A DNA stretch of 64,000 nucleotides from Candidatus Poribacteria bacterium (GTDB lineage Bacteria; Poribacteria; WGA-4E; PCPOR2b). The notes under the pieces were generated by a model. The model saw only the letters and a list, made by a program, of their open reading frames with translations, had not been told where the DNA came from and did not search any database. A program made the position numbers and the translations under genes. Positions 17,433 through 25,730 of the stretch are shown here, piece after piece (positions within the stretch are counted from its first letter, which is position 1; each line of letters starts with the position of its first letter). The DNA is taken from the NCBI GenBank assembly GCA_965116925.1, contig OZ220744.1:800001-864000 (forward strand), given 5' to 3'.

Positions 17433-19523
17433 CTATTTGTCGTTCATCTCCTTAACACGCCGATCGATCTGGCGAAACTGCCAACCCCATCGGACATTGT
17501 AAAGGAACTGACGAAGATCGAATCGGTTATCGTCAGGGGAATAGGACTCGGCGTGATATGACGGTGTCAGTGTTGTCATCTTATGACGGTTCACGGAATA
17601 GTAGTAAAAGAAGCGTTTGACCTTTTCGGCGATCTCTTGGGGCGGGAGATGATTCCATTCATGGACTAATTTCTCAAACATACTTACGGGACCGCACCGA
17701 TCAATTTTCCGCAGCCTGCCGAAACGACTGAGCTCTTCGTAGGTCATTCCCATATCCGCCTCATCCTCCTGCGTGTATGTTTCAGTGATTGGCTCTAACT
17801 CCGCTGTCGGTGGGGCTTCGACCACCTCAGTGAGAGCATGGTAACCCAGATTCTCTGCTGCCCAGCGCAAAAACCGGCGGAGGTCCGTCTTGCTAATCCC
17901 GCCGATTGGGTTCAGATCGGCACTGCTGCAATCGTATTTCGTCACATACCCTCGAAGGCTCTCATCCACGTTGGCACTGCCCAAAACCAGCAACGCACCA
18001 CGTTTGCCCCGCACCCACGGCAACAGTTGCGCCATCAGATAAGCAAGGGTCATACGGATGCGTGCCTGAATATTCTGCAAGGCATTATTCTCCCTCTCTG
18101 TTCCACCCTCCACCTTAAACTTCGGGGTTTTCCCAGTAATGCCCACAAAAAGAGCATAGAGCGCAGCAACGACTGAATCAATATTCACACTCAGGTGGTA
18201 AGAACCGATCTGGTCGGTCAGCCGCTTTGCGCGATCCTGTGTCGCTTTTGAGCTATTCCGGGTTGCCATGTAACAGGTATAAAAGACTCTATTGGCAAAT
18301 TCGCGTGGATCGGTTGGGAGGTAGGCACTATCTTCGCTTTCTCCAGTGATTCGACGGGCATCTTGGATGACTTGTTGGTTGCCTGCTCGCGCTGCCTTTG
18401 CAACCATCTGACACATTGAGCCAACAATAGTTGCCACCGACGAGCTATCCGCCCCACCGGAGATTGGCAAGAAATATCCCGCGACACCGGAGCGTCTCAG
18501 GTAATCCCACAGCCAACAGGCGGGACCGTAGGCAATCTCTTCTTCCGGCGTGTGATAGTTCACATCAATTGTAGAGGAAGGAGAACAAGAGGAATCTTCG
18601 ACGGTCAGGTCAAAATCCGCGCTTATCCGAGGGACTGGATCCGATTGGCTGGCTTGTACCATTCGGCTGATAATTGCGCCACGCTTCGATCGTACGTCTT
18701 CCAGATTAACAGTTGCTGTGACCACTTCGACATCGTTCAGAGAAAACTGCGACCCCTGTGCCACAATCTCCCCATTGAGGGCAATGAGCGCGCACCCATC
18801 GAAATAGAGCCGTCCGCCATCGCACCCCTGTTGATTTGCGTAGAGGTAAACACCGCCACTTTTCGAGGTTGCATTACGGATGAGATCCACCCGCGTGTTC
18901 AGCTTGCGAAGTTCGTGATGTGAGCCTGAACCGTTCGTGATAATTTCAATCCCGTTCAAGCCGAGATAGATATGTGGACTATTTGGCGCGAAAAGTTCCT
19001 CACAGGTTTCAGCGGCTAGGGCAGTATCACGCGCCGCGATTGCTGCATCGCCGAAGGGCACCGTTTCCTGTCCCGTTATCTCCCGGAGCATACGCGGCAG
19101 GTAGTATTCCTCCACTTGTCGTAGGTGTTGCCACGCTGCAAACCATCGGGGTTCCCGATAGTTTCCGTCGGCGGCAAGAATTAGCTTGGGACGGATGAGG
19201 AGAATCTTTCCATTTAGCACGAAGATCCGACAGTTATACCGCACATTTCTGTGCATGACCGGCATCCCGATATCGCACAAAATATCGGTTGTTAGGTCGC
19301 CCTTGAGGATTTCGGCAAGACACTCCCACGAATGGAGAAAGGTATCTCCCTCCAAGAAATGGTCTTCGCAACCGTAGCCCGGTATTTCGAGTTCGGGACC
19401 GAGCCGATAGCGTGCCCCGTTTTGCTTGGCTATCTGAATCGACTCGATAATCCGTCCCAAATTTCCCTCAAAATCGAGTGCCCATTGGGTGAGATTGCAT
19501 GTTGCTAAGGTTGTGAGTTTCAT
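17433..19523 (-). CDS. nadE: Glutamine-dependent NAD+ synthetase, eukaryote-type
   Basis: Nitrilase domain (GPELE, RPK, TCEE) plus synthetase domain ([28 protein letters not shown]). Start set at MKLTT. Confidence 0.95.
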
Positions 19524-19561
19524 GACTTTGCGTCCAAAGCGTGATGCGTGAAACGTGAAAG

Positions 19562-19972
19562 TTGACATCTCTCTTTGATGCGAGCGGTGTTGTCCTCGCC
19601 TACCTTTTTGGATCGGAGGCGAAAGGCACCACACACCCTGAATCGGACATCGACATCGCCGTTCTGCTATCCGATCAGATCCCGCAAGCGGAATACGGTC
19701 AACGGGTGGTAGACCTCAATACCGAGCTTATTGGCATTTTCCAACGGGATGCAGTTGATGTTGCACTGCTGAACAACGCCCCGCCGCTGCTGGCTTTTCA
19801 AGTTGTACGTCACGGCGTTGTCATCTATGACCCAGATCATCGGTATGTCTCATTCTATGTTGACACATTCAATCGTTATACCGACACCCAACCTTTGCGT
19901 GACCTCCAATGGCAATACTACCTCAAAAGACAGAGTGCCAAATCCCAAAACTCCCGAAGCGAGCCCGATTAA
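19562..19972 (+). CDS. mntA: MntA-type minimal nucleotidyltransferase antitoxin
   Basis: YLFGS.A.G....SDIDIAV...VDVALLN. TTG start with no clear RBS. Confidence 0.82.
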
Positions 19973-19974
19973 GT

Positions 19975-20403
19975 ATGATTGATCCACAAGCCACCCAAGC
20001 CTTGTTACAAACGCTTTCGGAATATACCGAAGATCTCCGCACTTATCAGCAGTTGAGTCGTGATGAGGTGGTAGCAGATCGCAATTATCAATCGATGATT
20101 CGTTATGCGCTGCAAACGGCAATCCGGTGTGTGATTGATATTGCGAATCACCTGCTTATCGGCGGCGACTTGGAACAGCCATCTGACAGCCGGTCTGCAA
20201 TACTTGGACTCGGTAGATACGATATTCTGCCTCAAGATTTTGCACAGGAACTCGCTGGCATGTCGGGGCTACGAAACGTGATTGTGCATCGGTATATGAC
20301 GGTCGATGATGAGTTGATCTATCAATTTCTACAACGGTGTGTTACCGATTTTGAGGCGTTTAGTCAACATATCGTCGACTATTTACAAGAAAATTGTCGG
20401 TAG
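19975..20403 (+). CDS. hepT: HepT-type HEPN RNase toxin (DUF86)
   Basis: RNVIVHRY (RX4HXY) motif; ATG 2 nt after the mntA stop. Confidence 0.85.
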   Translation: MIDPQATQALLQTLSEYTEDLRTYQQLSRDEVVADRNYQSMIRYALQTAIRCVIDIANHLLIGGDLEQPSDSRSAILGLGRYDILPQDFAQELAGMSGLRNVIVHRYMTVDDELIYQFLQRCVTDFEAFSQHIVDYLQENCR

Positions 20404-20611: not shown

Positions 20612-21628
20612 TCATTCCCACGGCTTCAGGATCATCTTGCTGTTTTGATGAGACGATGAAATTTCAAAAGCCCGCTGGATCTCGCTCATCGGAACAATGT
20701 GACTAATAAGCAGATCAATCAGCGGCGATTCTTGGATGACTTTCATGATGCCCGGAAAATCGCTGAGGTTGTAGTGCCAGTTGCCGATGATAGTGAGCCC
20801 CTTACGGATGAGGTCTGGACTGACGCGGATTGGCAAATCCTGTCCACATTCTCCGACATAAGCAACCTTCCCCTTGCGCCGTGCTGCATCAATACAGAGC
20901 CGCTCCGCTTGAACGGTCCCGGAGCAGTCCAACGCACAATCCACACCGATCCCATCTGTCAAATCTTTAATTTTCTGAACGATGTCCGGATCGCTTGGGT
21001 CAAGGACTTCCGCAGCACCCATCTGCTTCACGCGATCAACCCGCCACGGCACAGATTCCACAGCGATGACCCGCGCACCTCGAAAACGCGCATTGACGAC
21101 CGCACCAAATCCAACTGGACCGATGCCAGTAATCAGTACGGTATCATAGGCACTTAAATCCATCGTCTGAAACGCGCCAAATGAGGGGCCCAGTGCACAG
21201 CAGGCGAGACCGGCATGTTCATAAGGCACCCCATCTGGAATTTTTGGCAGAATCCAAGAAGGTTTCAGGAGATATTGCGCCATCGTCGCCCGTCCTTCAG
21301 GGGCACCGGTGAACGCTGTAAAATCGTAAGCGTTTTCGCAGTGAATGTAGTCCCCGTCAACGCACAGGTGGCATTTGCCACATGGGTACTGCGGCATCAC
21401 AACCACCCGATCTCCCTCTTTGACCTTTCCCGGCTGTGCCACTGCTACGACCTCTCCCGCTGCCTCGTGTCCGAGGAACTCCGATTTGCCTCCCGACACA
21501 TAGCCCTTGTATTCGGTGCACATCGGTGCCGCATGTACCTTGACGACGGCCCAATCCTCTTTGGGTTGCGGATCTGGAACTTCAGCAATTCCCGCTTGGC
21601 GTTCTCCGAGTATAACTGCTTTTTTCAT
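20612..21628 (-). CDS. Zn-dependent MDR alcohol/polyol dehydrogenase
   Basis: GHE, structural Zn site CGKCHLC...C and GIGPVG. Confidence 0.9.
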   Translation of the reverse strand: MKKAVILGERQAGIAEVPDPQPKEDWAVVKVHAAPMCTEYKGYVSGGKSEFLGHEAAGEVVAVAQPGKVKEGDRVVVMPQYPCGKCHLCVDGDYIHCENAYDFTAFTGAPEGRATMAQYLLKPSWILPKIPDGVPYEHAGLACCALGPSFGAFQTMDLSAYDTVLITGIGPVGFGAVVNARFRGARVIAVESVPWRVDRVKQMGAAEVLDPSDPDIVQKIKDLTDGIGVDCALDCSGTVQAERLCIDAARRKGKVAYVGECGQDLPIRVSPDLIRKGLTIIGNWHYNLSDFPGIMKVIQESPLIDLLISHIVPMSEIQRAFEISSSHQNSKMILKPWE

Positions 21629-21680
21629 TTCTTTTCTCCTGAGTGTGTTTACTTGTGGTTCACTTAGTCGGTCTCACGAG

Positions 21681-21979
21681 CTAGGGCGTGTTGACATTTT
21701 GAGAATGCTGATTCGGCAAACGCTGTAATCATCGGGGAATCTGACATAAGTAGCGTTTGCGGACGGAGATCACAATCTAACAGATCGTGGTACAAAAGAC
21801 CACTTTTAGGGACTAATGTTTTCAAAAGGAGACTTCCCGATGAAAAACGGAGTTGGGTTTCACTCTATTTGTCTAGAAGCAGATGTCGTTGAACGACGGA
21901 GCCTCTATTGGACTTGGTAGGGATTGGGTTTTAACCGTTCAACCCAACCTACGGGCCGTTAAATGTCAACAGAATCTAG
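21681..21979 (+). mobile_element. MITE family E (module X only)
   Basis: ctagggcgtgttgacatt ... aatgtcaacagaatctag with CTAG at both ends. Confidence 0.8.
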
Positions 21980-22058
21980 TAAAATTATGATTGGTGTTAT
22001 TTGGCATTATATCAAAATTGGGATGCCATTGCAAGCGGAAACAAAAGACAAAAAAATC

Positions 22059-22087
22059 TTGACATCCCCGCAAACGTCTGTTACTAT
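22059..22087 (+). promoter_or_regulatory. sigma70 promoter of the ileS leader
   Basis: TTGACA-17 bp-TACTAT with an extended -10 TG. Confidence 0.75.
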
Positions 22088-22128
22088 ACTATTTTGTTGG
22101 ACAAAAATCAAACAGGGAGATTTGCACT

Positions 22129-22257
22129 GTGCCATACTCACTATCAATCCACGAATCTATACGCGAGACTGAAAGCCGGAATATACGTCTTTCTATTGAG
22201 ATTATTTCTATTATTATCATTGCGTCTTGCGGTGGTGGGCTGATGGAGACAAAGTAA
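22129..22257 (+). CDS. Ile-rich leader peptide (42 aa): MPYSLSIHESIRETESRNIRLSIEIISIIIIASCGGGLMETK
   Basis: GGGAGA RBS 8 nt before the GTG; 10 Ile codons, 7 of them within codons 23-31; directly upstream of ileS. Confidence 0.8.
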   Translation: MPYSLSIHESIRETESRNIRLSIEIISIIIIASCGGGLMETK

Positions 22258-22284
22258 ACTCGATTACAGCAGTCATAACAATAC

Positions 22285-22330
22285 AAACGCCCACCATCGA
22301 AAACAACTTCGGTGGTGGGCGTTTTTGTTT
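22285..22330 (+). terminator. Attenuator terminator upstream of ileS
   Basis: aaacgcccaccatcgaa-aacaac-ttcggtggtgggcgttt followed by ttgttt. Confidence 0.85.
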
Positions 22331-22370
22331 GCAGGGCAGTTAATACACATTTTACACACAGGAGAAAAGT

Positions 22371-25300
22371 ATGTTTAAGGATGTACCCAATACAGTAGAC
22401 TTCGTTACCCAAGAGCATCAACTCTTAGACTTCTGGCGCGACAGTGACGTTTTCCACAAACTCCGGGAGCTGCGACAGGAGGGACCTCGCTGGAGTTTCA
22501 TTGACGGACCAATTACCGCCAATAACCCGATGGGTGTCCACCACGCATGGGGTCGGACATACAAGGATCTCTTTCAACGATTCAAAGCCATGCAAGGCTA
22601 TCAGACCCGATACCAGAACGGGTTTGATTGCCAAGGACTCTGGATTGAGGTCAATGTCGAGCGCGACATGGGTTTCAAAGCCAAAAAGGACATTGAGGCA
22701 TACGGATTAGATGAATTTGTCAACGCCTGCAAGCGGCAGGTGCTTCGCCATGCAGCTACGCAGACCGAACAATCTATGCGACTCGGCTACTGGATGGACT
22801 GGAATGATCCGGATCTCTTGCGTGAGCTAGAGCAGAAAATGGCACAGGATCCCTCACAGTCCCTCACCGTAGAGGGGCCGAATGGTCCCGTCACGGATAC
22901 GGTTGAGCAGCTTGTGGGAAGACTCGGATTGCCGGAGTTGGGCGGATCTTACTTCACATTTTCCAACGAGAACAATTACACCATCTGGACGATGCTGAAG
23001 AAATGCTTCGATCGTGGCTGGATCTATAAAGGCACGGATGTCATGCCGTGGTGTTCACGGTGCGATACCGGCATCAGCCAACATGAGATTGTCACCGACG
23101 GATATAGGGAACTAACGCATACCAGTATTTTTCTCCATTTCCCGCTGCGGAATCGTCCTGATGAGAGCCTGTTGGTCTGGACGACGACGCCGTGGACATT
23201 GACAAGCAATGTTGCAGCGGCGGTGCACCCAGATCTGACCTACGCTTTGGTAGAACAGGGCGAGCATCGCTTCTGGTTGAGCAAGGGAGCATTAGAGAAC
23301 GCCATTCAGGGAGATTACCGGATTCTTGAAGAAAAATCGGGTGGCGAATTGGAAGGCTGGACCTATGACGGTCCTTTCGATGAACTGCCAGCCCAACAGA
23401 CCTCCGGCGCAGCTGAGGGGCACCGCGTCATCCTGTGGGACGAAGTTGGTGAAGCGGAAGGTACAGGAATTGTCCACACCGCGCCGGGCTGCGGTGCAGA
23501 GGACTTTGAATTGAGCAAGGAGCAAGATCTCCCTGTTATCGCTCCGTTGGGAGCGGAAGGAATTTATCTCGACGGATTCGACTGGTTGACGGGTCGTCAG
23601 GTCCACACCGTTGCGGAGGACATCTTTGAAAATCTGAAGGAGAAAGGGATTGTCTATCGTCTCGAAGATTACACCCACCGCTACCCGGTATGTTGGCGCT
23701 GCGAGGAGGAGCTGGTCTTTCGCCTTGTGGACGAATGGTTCATCTCAATGGGGGACCAACTGGACAAACCGTATGAACAGGTGACGGAGGCAGAGAAGGA
23801 ACAGAACCTACGCTATCAGATGATGGAGGTTGTCCTCAACGAAACCAAGTGGTATCCCTCGTTCGGACTCGCCCGTGAACTCGACTGGCTGCGGAATATG
23901 CACGATTGGATGATTTCTAAGAAACGCTACTGGGGGTTAGCACTCCCCATCTATGAATGCGATGAATGCAGCCATTTTCACGTCGTTGGGAGTTTGGAGG
24001 AATTGAAGGAACTCGCCGTTGAAGGCTGGGATGAATTTGAGGGACATACACCGCATCGTCCGTGGATTGATGCGGTGAAGATCGCCTGCCCAAGTTGCGG
24101 TGCCGCTGTTTCACGTATCCCGGACGTTGGGAATCCTTGGTTAGATGCTGGTATCGTCAGTTTCAGCACGATGCAATATCGTACCGACCGAGATTACTGG
24201 AGTCAATGGTTTCCCGCCGATCTGATTAGTGAGAGTTTTCCGGGACAATTTCGGAACTGGTTCTATTCGTTAATCGCAATGAGTACAGTGATGGAACGAC
24301 GCTCGCCGTTTAAGCAAAATTTCAGTTATGCGACGTTGTTTGCGGAAGACGGACGTGAGATGCACAAATCTTGGGGCAACGCTATCTGGTTTGATGACGC
24401 CGCCGAGTCAATGGGTGTGGACGTGATGCGTTGGATGTACTGCGCCGCCAAACCGGAGCAGAATCTACTTTTCGGCTACAAGCACTCTGATGAAGTTCGC
24501 CGTCAAGTTCTCATTCCGTTCTGGAATGTGTATAGTTTCCTCGTCACCTATGCGAACGTTGATGGGTGGAAACCAGACGCAAATCTTTGGAAAGAAACGC
24601 CACAAATGTCTGAAAACCCCCTTGATCGTTGGATTCTATCCCGTCTGCAAAGCACAGTTCGTTCGGTAACGGAGCGTCTGGAGGAATATTCGCCCGATGG
24701 TGCCTGCCGCGTTGTTGAGGATTTTCTGGATGATCTGTCGAACTGGTATCTGCGTCGAAGCCGCCGCCGTTTCTGGAAGTCGGAAGCGGATACAGATAAG
24801 GAAGTTGCCTATCAGACATTGTATCAAGTTATGGTGACGACGAGTCGACTATTAGCACCGTTTGTCCCCTTCGTTACCGAATCAATCTTCCAGAACTTGG
24901 TATGTTCGGTTGACGCAGATGCGCCTGAAAGTGTCCATCTCTCCGATTACCCTGAGGTAGAGGACGAACTCGTTGATATATCACTGGAAGACGATATGAA
25001 ACTCGCTCGTGACGTGATCGGTTTGGGACGTGCTGCTCGGAATCAATCGGGGATCAAGACACGGCAACCGATCGGCTGCATCGGGATCGGTGGTATCTCC
25101 GAAAAGGGACAAGCTGCTGTTAATCGTCTGTCCCCACTCGTTTTGGATGAACTGAACGTCAAGGAGATCTCTTACCACGAAGGGATCGACGAGTTTGCGA
25201 GCTACACGATTAAGCCGAATTTCAAGCTGCTGGGACCGAAATATGGGAAAAATGTCCAAGCGATTGCGAAAGCAATGGCAGCAAGGGATGCGCTCACCCT

Positions 25301-25730
25301 CAAGCAGGAGCTCGATGGGAACGGTGAGCTAGAGATTCAGGCAGCGGGTGTAAGTTACAGGCTAGAAAGGGCAGAGGTTGATGTGCAGTCGGAGAACCGG
25401 GAGGGCTACGCCGTTGAGGCAGATGCTCACAAGTTTGTCGCCCTCTCGACCGAATTGACCGATGAACTCATCCTTGAGGGTTTTGCGCGGGAGTTGGTCA
25501 ATAAGATTCAGCAGATTCGGAAGGAAGCTGACTTTAATGTCTCTGATCGGATTTCGCTCAGTTTGGAATCAACGCCAATCGTTCACGAAGCGTTTGACCG
25601 TCACCGTGATTATATCACACACGAGACCTTGGCGTTGCATGTTGTTGAATCGTCAAGTCCGAACGCTTTTCTGAAGTCACAGAAGGTTAATGACGAGGAG
25701 GCAACGATTGGTGTGGAGCAGGTGACGTAA
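22371..25730 (+). CDS. ileS: Isoleucyl-tRNA synthetase, type 2
   Basis: DGPITAN, WTTTPWTL, GTGIVH.AP, W.ISKKRYWG and a long type-2 C-terminus (EGFARELVNKIQ..RK). Confidence 0.97.
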   Translation: MFKDVPNTVDFVTQEHQLLDFWRDSDVFHKLRELRQEGPRWSFIDGPITANNPMGVHHAWGRTYKDLFQRFKAMQGYQTRYQNGFDCQGLWIEVNVERDMGFKAKKDIEAYGLDEFVNACKRQVLRHAATQTEQSMRLGYWMDWNDPDLLRELEQKMAQDPSQSLTVEGPNGPVTDTVEQLVGRLGLPELGGSYFTFSNENNYTIWTMLKKCFDRGWIYKGTDVMPWCSRCDTGISQHEIVTDGYRELTHTSIFLHFPLRNRPDESLLVWTTTPWTLTSNVAAAVHPDLTYALVEQGEHRFWLSKGALENAIQGDYRILEEKSGGELEGWTYDGPFDELPAQQTSGAAEGHRVILWDEVGEAEGTGIVHTAPGCGAEDFELSKEQDLPVIAPLGAEGIYLDGFDWLTGRQVHTVAEDIFENLKEKGIVYRLEDYTHRYPVCWRCEEELVFRLVDEWFISMGDQLDKPYEQVTEAEKEQNLRYQMMEVVLNETKWYPSFGLARELDWLRNMHDWMISKKRYWGLALPIYECDECSHFHVVGSLEELKELAVEGWDEFEGHTPHRPWIDAVKIACPSCGAAVSRIPDVGNPWLDAGIVSFSTMQYRTDRDYWSQWFPADLISESFPGQFRNWFYSLIAMSTVMERRSPFKQNFSYATLFAEDGREMHKSWGNAIWFDDAAESMGVDVMRWMYCAAKPEQNLLFGYKHSDEVRRQVLIPFWNVYSFLVTYANVDGWKPDANLWKETPQMSENPLDRWILSRLQSTVRSVTERLEEYSPDGACRVVEDFLDDLSNWYLRRSRRRFWKSEADTDKEVAYQTLYQVMVTTSRLLAPFVPFVTESIFQNLVCSVDADAPESVHLSDYPEVEDELVDISLEDDMKLARDVIGLGRAARNQSGIKTRQPIGCIGIGGISEKGQAAVNRLSPLVLDELNVKEISYHEGIDEFASYTIKPNFKLLGPKYGKNVQAIAKAMAARDALTLKQELDGNGELEIQAAGVSYRLERAEVDVQSENREGYAVEADAHKFVALSTELTDELILEGFARELVNKIQQIRKEADFNVSDRISLSLESTPIVHEAFDRHRDYITHETLALHVVESSSPNAFLKSQKVNDEEATIGVEQVT

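Follow-up and report, generated by a model that had tools for sequence, protein, structure and literature searches.

What controls the expression of isoleucyl-tRNA synthetase in Poribacteria? The question is raised by the window analysed here, a stretch of 64,000 nucleotides from a Candidatus Poribacteria bacterium (contig OZ220744.1, positions 800,001 to 864,000), in which ileS is preceded by a short isoleucine-rich reading frame and by RNA segments that can pair in alternative ways. A sequence-only reading of this stretch had proposed a leader-peptide attenuator that senses isoleucine. Conservation, selection of Ile codons, spacing, folding with a modelled ribosome and paralogues with cognate codons all support that interpretation. 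On these comparative and modelling grounds, the leader is very probably a transcription attenuator of the classical ribosome-mediated kind: a stall on Ile codons would keep an antiterminator in place and give readthrough into ileS. The features of the locus, in window positions, are as follows.

22059..22087, + strand: sigma-70-type promoter-like site, TTGACA-17-TACTAT with an extended TG; 10 of 12 consensus matches, probable start site at about 22094
22115..22120, + strand: ribosome-binding site of the leader ORF, GGGAGA, 8 nt 5' of the GTG
22129..22257, + strand: leader ORF of 42 codons, GTG start, 10 Ile codons, read from the sequence
22195..22221, + strand: regulatory Ile run, 7 Ile in 9 codons; the last Ile ends 9 nt before region 2
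22214..22223, + strand: region 1, weak G-U-rich partner of region 2; 1:2 is worth -9.1 kcal/mol by folding
22230..22240, + strand: region 2, the antiterminator strand; 11 bp with region 3, -19.5 kcal/mol
22289..22299, + strand: region 3, the shared strand, pairing with region 2 or region 4 (folding and alignment)
22285..22330, + strand: predicted intrinsic terminator 3:4, 17 bp (22285-22324) plus U-tract, -29.9 kcal/mol
22360..22364, + strand: ileS ribosome-binding site, AGGAG, outside all leader helices considered
22371..25730, + strand: ileS, type-2 (eukaryote-like) isoleucyl-tRNA synthetase, 1119 aa, TIGR00392 above cut-off
22533-22544, + strand: GVHH signature, residues 55-58 of the enzyme, GXHH in place of HXGH

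An isoleucine-rich leader ORF upstream of ileS

The promoter, the GGGAGA ribosome-binding site and the GTG-initiated ORF with its ten Ile codons had each been proposed before, and all three are present at the coordinates listed above. Taken alone, the promoter-like site is modest evidence for a promoter: the 1.3 kb around the leader contain six such sites, against 2.0 +/- 1.4 in shuffled sequences. A TTGACA box stands at a comparable place in many of the relatives' ileS upstream regions.

Codons 23-31 of the leader ORF hold seven of its ten Ile codons. At least seven Ile codons in a 10-codon window occurred in 2 of 5000 dinucleotide simulations and in 1 of 5000 mononucleotide shuffles of the leader. 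Throughout the 6.47-Mb genome only three stop-to-stop frames of fewer than 90 codons reach this density, the leader frame among them. The ORF has no match among the NCBIfam models. An overlapping Leu-rich frame of 80 codons (22001-22243) was rejected, since it begins upstream of the promoter and so cannot lie on the leader transcript.

Mutually exclusive antiterminator and terminator helices

Sequence and folding indicate that the 2:3 antiterminator and the 3:4 terminator exclude each other through their common region 3. Region 2 had been described as a copy of part of the terminator's 3' arm; this is borne out, with an identity of 11 nt (22230-40 and 22310-20), one more than claimed. The strong terminator with a U-tract is likewise recovered by prediction, and 21500-22800 contains no other terminator-like site. 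Folding of 2:3 over 22229-22305 gives a z-score of -4.2, which none of 200 shuffles equals. In stability the terminator exceeds 2:3 by about 10 kcal/mol; readthrough must therefore be kinetic. An inner helix of 4 bp that would prolong 2:3 was rejected: it is 98.5% paired, but shows zero double changes and is not better than shuffles.

The G-U-rich 1:2 hairpin of the sequence-only reading can be drawn, but it is weak, with G-U in six of ten pairs, and it loses to 2:3. Because naked RNA also prefers 2:3 to 1:2, by folding, in the window and in 43 of the 55 leaders of relatives, a trp-like role for 1:2 as a pause or protector hairpin is not supported by the modelling; nor was a pause site found.

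The position of the ribosome was modelled on the assumption that it covers about 13 nt counted from the P site. In the window leader 2:3 has a probability of 1.0 when the ribosome stalls on any one of the eight Ile codons examined, and of 0.03 when it is two codons past the last Ile. Among the relatives this probability exceeds 0.5 in 52/55 stalled leaders versus 10/55 with the ribosome two codons further on; in genus g11 the modelled antiterminator often outlasts a ribosome that has passed the run (above 0.5 in 5/10). The distance from the last Ile to region 2 is 6-12 nt in 46 of the 55 leaders, even though reading frame and stop position vary among families. Family f1 leaders have their stop codon 24 nt into or beyond region 2, g11 leaders just before region 2, and f2 leaders inside it.

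The proposed switch would work as follows. When Ile-tRNA(Ile) is low, uncharged tRNA(Ile) would stall the ribosome on the Ile run. With the A site on any Ile codon, region 2 would be free to pair with region 3 once the latter is made and before region 4 is, and with 2:3 formed ileS would be transcribed. With ample Ile-tRNA, a ribosome two codons past the last Ile would cover region 2 and 3:4 would terminate transcription. Such a loop would report both IleRS activity and isoleucine supply, and would act as feedback on the only ileS detected. At leuS and DAHP synthase the same scaffold seems to have been put to use again, with different codon runs.

Conservation before ileS in Poribacteria

We took ileS upstream regions from 58 of 61 genomes, the other three having no N-terminal match. 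The scaffold of region 2, region 3 and terminator precedes ileS in 55/58 loci from four families of the order; the genomes that bear it are kin, and locus counts are thus non-independent events. In two genomes (G037, G046) the terminator is kept but region 2 has diverged. The leader has been lost in the close relative G003, where it is absent upstream of ileS, and the f2 genomes G079 and G080 have none before ileS.

The Ile-rich leader is kept in relatives, as had been expected of an attenuator. In the best of three frames, the 14 codons before region 2 contain at least four Ile in 46/55 leaders and at least three in 53/55; nine leaders have three or fewer. This best frame is the same in 26/26 leaders of f1 and 11/11 of f3, and another fixed frame is used in 13/13 of f2. 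An in-frame start codon is present in 53 of the 55, and predicted Shine-Dalgarno (SD) pairing is -4 kcal/mol or stronger in 44. Ile accounts for 290 of the 770 codons just before region 2, versus 48 for Leu, 22 for Val and 9 for Phe; the genome average for Ile is 6.5%. Since the Ile codons ATT (211), ATC (43) and ATA (36) interchange while ATG appears only five times, the leaders point to selection on the amino acid rather than on an A-T repeat.

Within the genus of the window, 15 of 18 scaffold-bearing loci retain five to eight Ile in frame together with an SD sequence and GTG. Among 18 further f2 loci, picked by their match to the scaffold pattern, 17 have at least three Ile. The leader is duplicated or rearranged in G002, G015 and G016 (L013, L007, L036), with only three Ile at 27 nt from region 2 and the scaffold intact. 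A partial duplication lies upstream of the intact leader of G013. Palindromic inserts stretch the spacer between terminator and ileS, up to about 650 nt, in five loci (L010, L022, L023, L029, L030). Short repeated palindromic elements also occur in the window at 21800-21985, and many unrelated RNA contigs pile up on 21835-21985.

Beyond the order, the phylum's other class included, a flagged terminator of the same type precedes ileS in 14/15 loci, and at least four Ile in ten codons are found in only 4/15. A strict phylum-wide pattern matches at least 120 of 176 and misses copies without G before the U-tract (all f3); its reversed control gives 0.

The cores of 50 of the 55 leaders were aligned, leaving out the three rearranged ones (G002, G015, G016) and two divergent ones (G040, G043). 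Covariation had been suggested earlier as a check on both helices. Helix 2:3 is 96% paired against 30-62% in slid controls, but has a single double change (A-U to G-C), which is common to 13 f2 rows and counts as one inherited event; region 2 doubles as coding sequence in f1 and f2. Helix 3:4 is 90% paired with four double-changed pairs, in an alignment where the f2 terminators are bulged and partly misaligned. In 12 of the 18 further f2 loci the predicted terminator leaves the central A of region 3 without a partner; in 2:3 this A is paired. The 3' arm of the f2 terminators varies while region 3 keeps its complementarity to region 2, a pairing that is partly built into the selection pattern.

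Evidence from RNA consists of assembled contigs, in which starts, ends and levels cannot be read and none of which is counted as support. For X2-X4, from one study, the assembled contig begins at 22102-22113 and runs into ileS; such contigs give no true start. X7 is an assembled 240-nt contig over 22129-22331 with short unlike ends, and likewise gives no true end. The assembled contigs of X1 and X6 reach upstream of the promoter, and X5 covers only the sequence from 22323. Indels within the Ile run in public contigs are of 3 nt. The population of X1-X4 (one study) carries a central mismatch in region 2, with which 2:3 drops from -23.9 to -17.3 kcal/mol; this is a point against strict constraint.

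The same scaffold before other genes

The window's genome (G000) carries the scaffold at two further places, and a related terminator with a short ORF at a third.

G000:C1:1126500-1126740 (L146): Leu-rich leader on the scaffold, before leuS
G000:C1:6257760-6258000 (L147): Tyr/Phe/Leu-rich leader on the scaffold, before a DAHP synthase gene
G000:C1:1533480-1533870, minus strand (L148, L344): Met-rich short ORF and related terminator, before a thrC-family gene

In relatives the scaffold precedes leuS in 19/50 loci, whose leaders have 110 Leu and 3 Ile among 266 codons. None was found in 20 separately fetched leuS regions, mostly from f2 and f4, with a pattern that may miss diverged copies. Before DAHP synthase the scaffold is present in 24/26 loci, with 136 Tyr plus Phe, 126 Leu and 1 Ile among 336 codons; Leu, about as abundant here as Tyr and Phe together, is non-cognate. 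Three further copies with Tyr/Phe runs stand before a different type of DAHP synthase (G024, G040, G043).

Family f5 has an ileS leader rich in Phe, Tyr, Trp and Leu in three genomes (L292 and L293 in G065 and G066, L276 in G064). It fits the cognate rule because ileS there precedes a DAHP synthase gene and a leuA-like gene, in that order in both genomes checked. From its codons, the f5 leader is possibly multivalent.

The Met-rich leader has relatives at L312-L341, and at least three Met in 16 codons occur in 24/30 loci of this kind. The gene behind it matches TIGR00260 above cut-off, and an ORF resembling aspartate aminotransferase also lies downstream. By its codon content this leader is a candidate methionine-sensing attenuator, hinting that the 'threonine synthase' encoded there may serve methionine synthesis; a literature search brought up nothing relevant to such a leader.

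No terminator with a leader was found before thrS, serS, the two proS copies, hisS, tyrS, trpS or valS of G000, names assigned from N-termini and Pfam class. The sole exception among these synthetase genes is serS, which has the terminator of a tRNA cluster upstream. A similar-looking terminator, with no evident cognate leader, precedes an argH-like gene.

Alternative explanations

Could the element instead be a degenerate T-box, with uncharged tRNA(Ile) as its direct ligand? In favour are a UGG within region 2, as in the T-box bulge, the use of T-boxes at other places in the genome, and their frequent presence among the Chloroflexota relatives of this IleRS. However, a search of 21000-23500 with the T-box model (RF00230) returned nothing up to an E-value of 5, while that model gives two matches over the Rfam cut-off elsewhere in the genome.

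G000:C1:5607381-5607638 (L059): T-box before pheS
G000:C1:3895548-3895806 (L060): T-box before ilvB

Moreover, 2:3 is a continuous helix and lacks the 7-nt T-box bulge. No Rfam leader model matches the ileS leader. The only family to appear there, mir-427 on the opposite strand, scores 21.5 bits against a gathering score of 70 and was dismissed as a chance match. A T-box is therefore largely refuted, with only a trace of probability left to it.

The remaining alternatives accept the leader but read it differently. The switch may be real and respond to the general speed of translation, or to a bound protein such as IleRS, rather than to Ile-tRNA specifically. With naked RNA preferring 2:3 over 1:2, readthrough would follow whenever the leader is not translated; RNA structure could favour Ile codons, which by way of G-U pairs are in part complementary to region 2; and Leu is plentiful in the DAHP synthase leaders. 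In Streptomyces, some classical-looking ilvB and leuA leaders failed codon-substitution tests (PMC1262725). Against this explanation, the codon run follows the downstream gene (Ile, Leu or Tyr/Phe) on an unchanged scaffold, ATG is avoided where the three Ile codons replace one another, and the spacing of the stall site is conserved, so that we regard it as improbable. If the element were an inherited attenuator whose regulatory role has been lost in this lineage, leaving only a fixed level of readthrough, this would account for the losses and rearrangements in the close relatives G003, G002, G015 and G016 and for the region-2 mismatch in one expressed population. The window copy is nevertheless intact, with perfect 11-bp 2:3 pairing; most scaffold-bearing loci of the genus (15/18) keep the in-frame Ile codons, SD and GTG; and indels within the run in public contigs are 3 nt long. 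This makes loss of regulation a little less credible still than a non-specific switch. Least persuasive of the three is that the ORF matters as a peptide, whether a small membrane protein, a lipoprotein or a nascent-chain arrest peptide, which we think very unlikely. The window peptide does combine a Cys with a basic residue and a hydrophobic stretch, and its run followed by A-S-C resembles a lipoprotein signal of the lipobox pattern. The lipoprotein version was rejected because a Cys stands at that position in only 11/26 f1 leaders. In addition, g11 leaders stop before the Cys, f2 leaders end in another frame, Ile is not freely exchanged for Leu, Val or Phe, and the N-terminal part is not conserved between families. 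We therefore retain ribosome-mediated attenuation as the preferred reading.

The enzyme behind the leader and its history

The ileS product scores closer to MupA/MupB than to ValRS models, and the IleRS-type motif has a single match in the genome, the ileS of the window. The GXHH motif of type-2 IleRS has been defined, and in such enzymes GVHH is reported to raise the mupirocin Ki about 200-fold and to give hyper-resistance (bioRxiv 10.1101/2023.01.31.526100). The native GVHH enzyme is predicted to be mupirocin-resistant, and a mupirocin test of the leader therefore needs a host with a sensitive IleRS.

Trees of IleRS, built from 39 and from 19 rows trimmed to some 700 residues, place the enzyme of the window, together with those of f1, g11 and f9, inside the enzymes of Chloroflexota, and the other sampled Poribacteria enzymes form a separate clade. 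Forcing all Poribacteria rows together is rejected modestly (p-AU 0.035, with 19 rows and a long branch between the clades). GVHH or GIHH occurs in both Poribacteria clades, and the ileS genes of both follow the same leader. The scaffold is absent from all 70 Chloroflexota ileS loci; a T-box core motif lies within 1.2 kb upstream in 42/70, over the Rfam cut-off in 3/18 scanned. An imported Chloroflexota-like ileS has thus likely replaced the ancestral Poribacteria gene behind a resident attenuator. Because of this likely replacement behind the same leader, the switch would be older than the gene that it now controls. Three Chloroflexota loci (L067, L080, L082) have a T-box, then an ORF of about 250 aa that resembles by eye a tRNA-synthetase editing domain, and then ileS.

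Two neighbours of the leader in the window also deserve mention. A long NAD+ synthase with a nitrilase-like N-terminus (17433-19634, minus strand) falls below the bacterial full-length cut-offs and looks like a eukaryote-type glutamine-dependent enzyme. Adjacent small ORFs (19562-20403, + strand) resemble by eye a nucleotidyltransferase and a HEPN/DUF86 protein, and look like a pair of the MNT-HEPN toxin-antitoxin kind.

We lean slightly towards a broader proposal, in which the leader is a portable cassette as old as the phylum. Its codon run would have been swapped to suit each gene, with Ile codons in front of ileS, Leu codons in front of leuS, Tyr/Phe codons in front of DAHP synthase, a mixture at the f5 ileS-aroF-leuA cluster, and a related Met-rich version at the thrC-family gene. 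The cassette would have outlived the replacement of ileS by a Chloroflexota-type gene that had lost its T-box, and it would lack a strong 1:2 hairpin, so that an untranslated leader would be ON by default.

Comparison with known systems

The mechanism is a classical one and not new: for other synthetase genes it has already been predicted or is known. The geometry of the trp, his, thr, ilv and pheST attenuators, invoked in the sequence-only reading, is found for the short ORF, the cognate codon run, the terminator, the antiterminator and the stall spacing, as far as sequence and modelling can indicate. The closest parallel is the pheM-pheST leader-peptide attenuator of E. coli. Both leaders combine a cognate-codon ORF with alternative 2:3 and 3:4 helices before a synthetase gene, and the ileS leader differs in amino acid, gene, phylum and its long GTG ORF of 42 codons. 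The ilv and thr leaders are multivalent. pheST is the gamma-proteobacterial example of a synthetase attenuator (PMC1262725). In the genome of the window, pheS is preceded by a T-box.

For the enterobacterial trp, his, thr and ilvGMEDA operons, the four-region model requires a 1:2 pause hairpin for high sensitivity (PMC1183508). The ileS leader shares with them the regulatory codons in region 1, the mutually exclusive 2:3 and 3:4 helices and the proposed deciding role of ribosome position, but differs in its weak 1:2, its Ile-only run and its synthetase target. Outside Proteobacteria, leader-peptide attenuators have been predicted for leuS and trpS of Streptomyces, where ileS T-boxes are also reported (PMC1262725), and His leader peptides precede hisS paralogues in bacilli (PMC2965389). 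These are likewise cases of synthetase attenuation, with exchanges of T-box and leader peptide within one gene family. Neither paper describes a leader peptide for ileS in its main text, and that of PMC2965389 does not mention ileS at all.

A search of the published literature, covering main texts, found no leader-peptide attenuator for ileS nor any for Poribacteria. The broadest survey of such attenuators, that of Lopatovskaya et al. 2010, lay outside this search (its abstract reportedly does not list ileS), and priority is not established.

If the proposed attenuation is correct, leader-peptide control would extend to ileS and to an uncultured phylum, beyond the few synthetase genes for which it is already on record, and coupled transcription and translation would be implied in Poribacteria, beside T-boxes in the same genome. 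The paralogous set offers a natural experiment, with one scaffold and several codon runs that each match the gene behind, and where the downstream gene is poorly annotated its codon run may suggest a function, as with the Met-rich leader before the thrC-family gene. The probable exchange of ileS behind a leader that was kept would be a clear case in which regulation stays and the enzyme is replaced. The ileS T-box riboswitches of Firmicutes and Actinobacteria (PMC1262725; bioRxiv 10.1101/2022.02.09.479832) control the same gene in response to the same presumed signal, the charging of tRNA-Ile; in the Poribacteria leader, the sensor would be the translating ribosome rather than direct binding of the tRNA.
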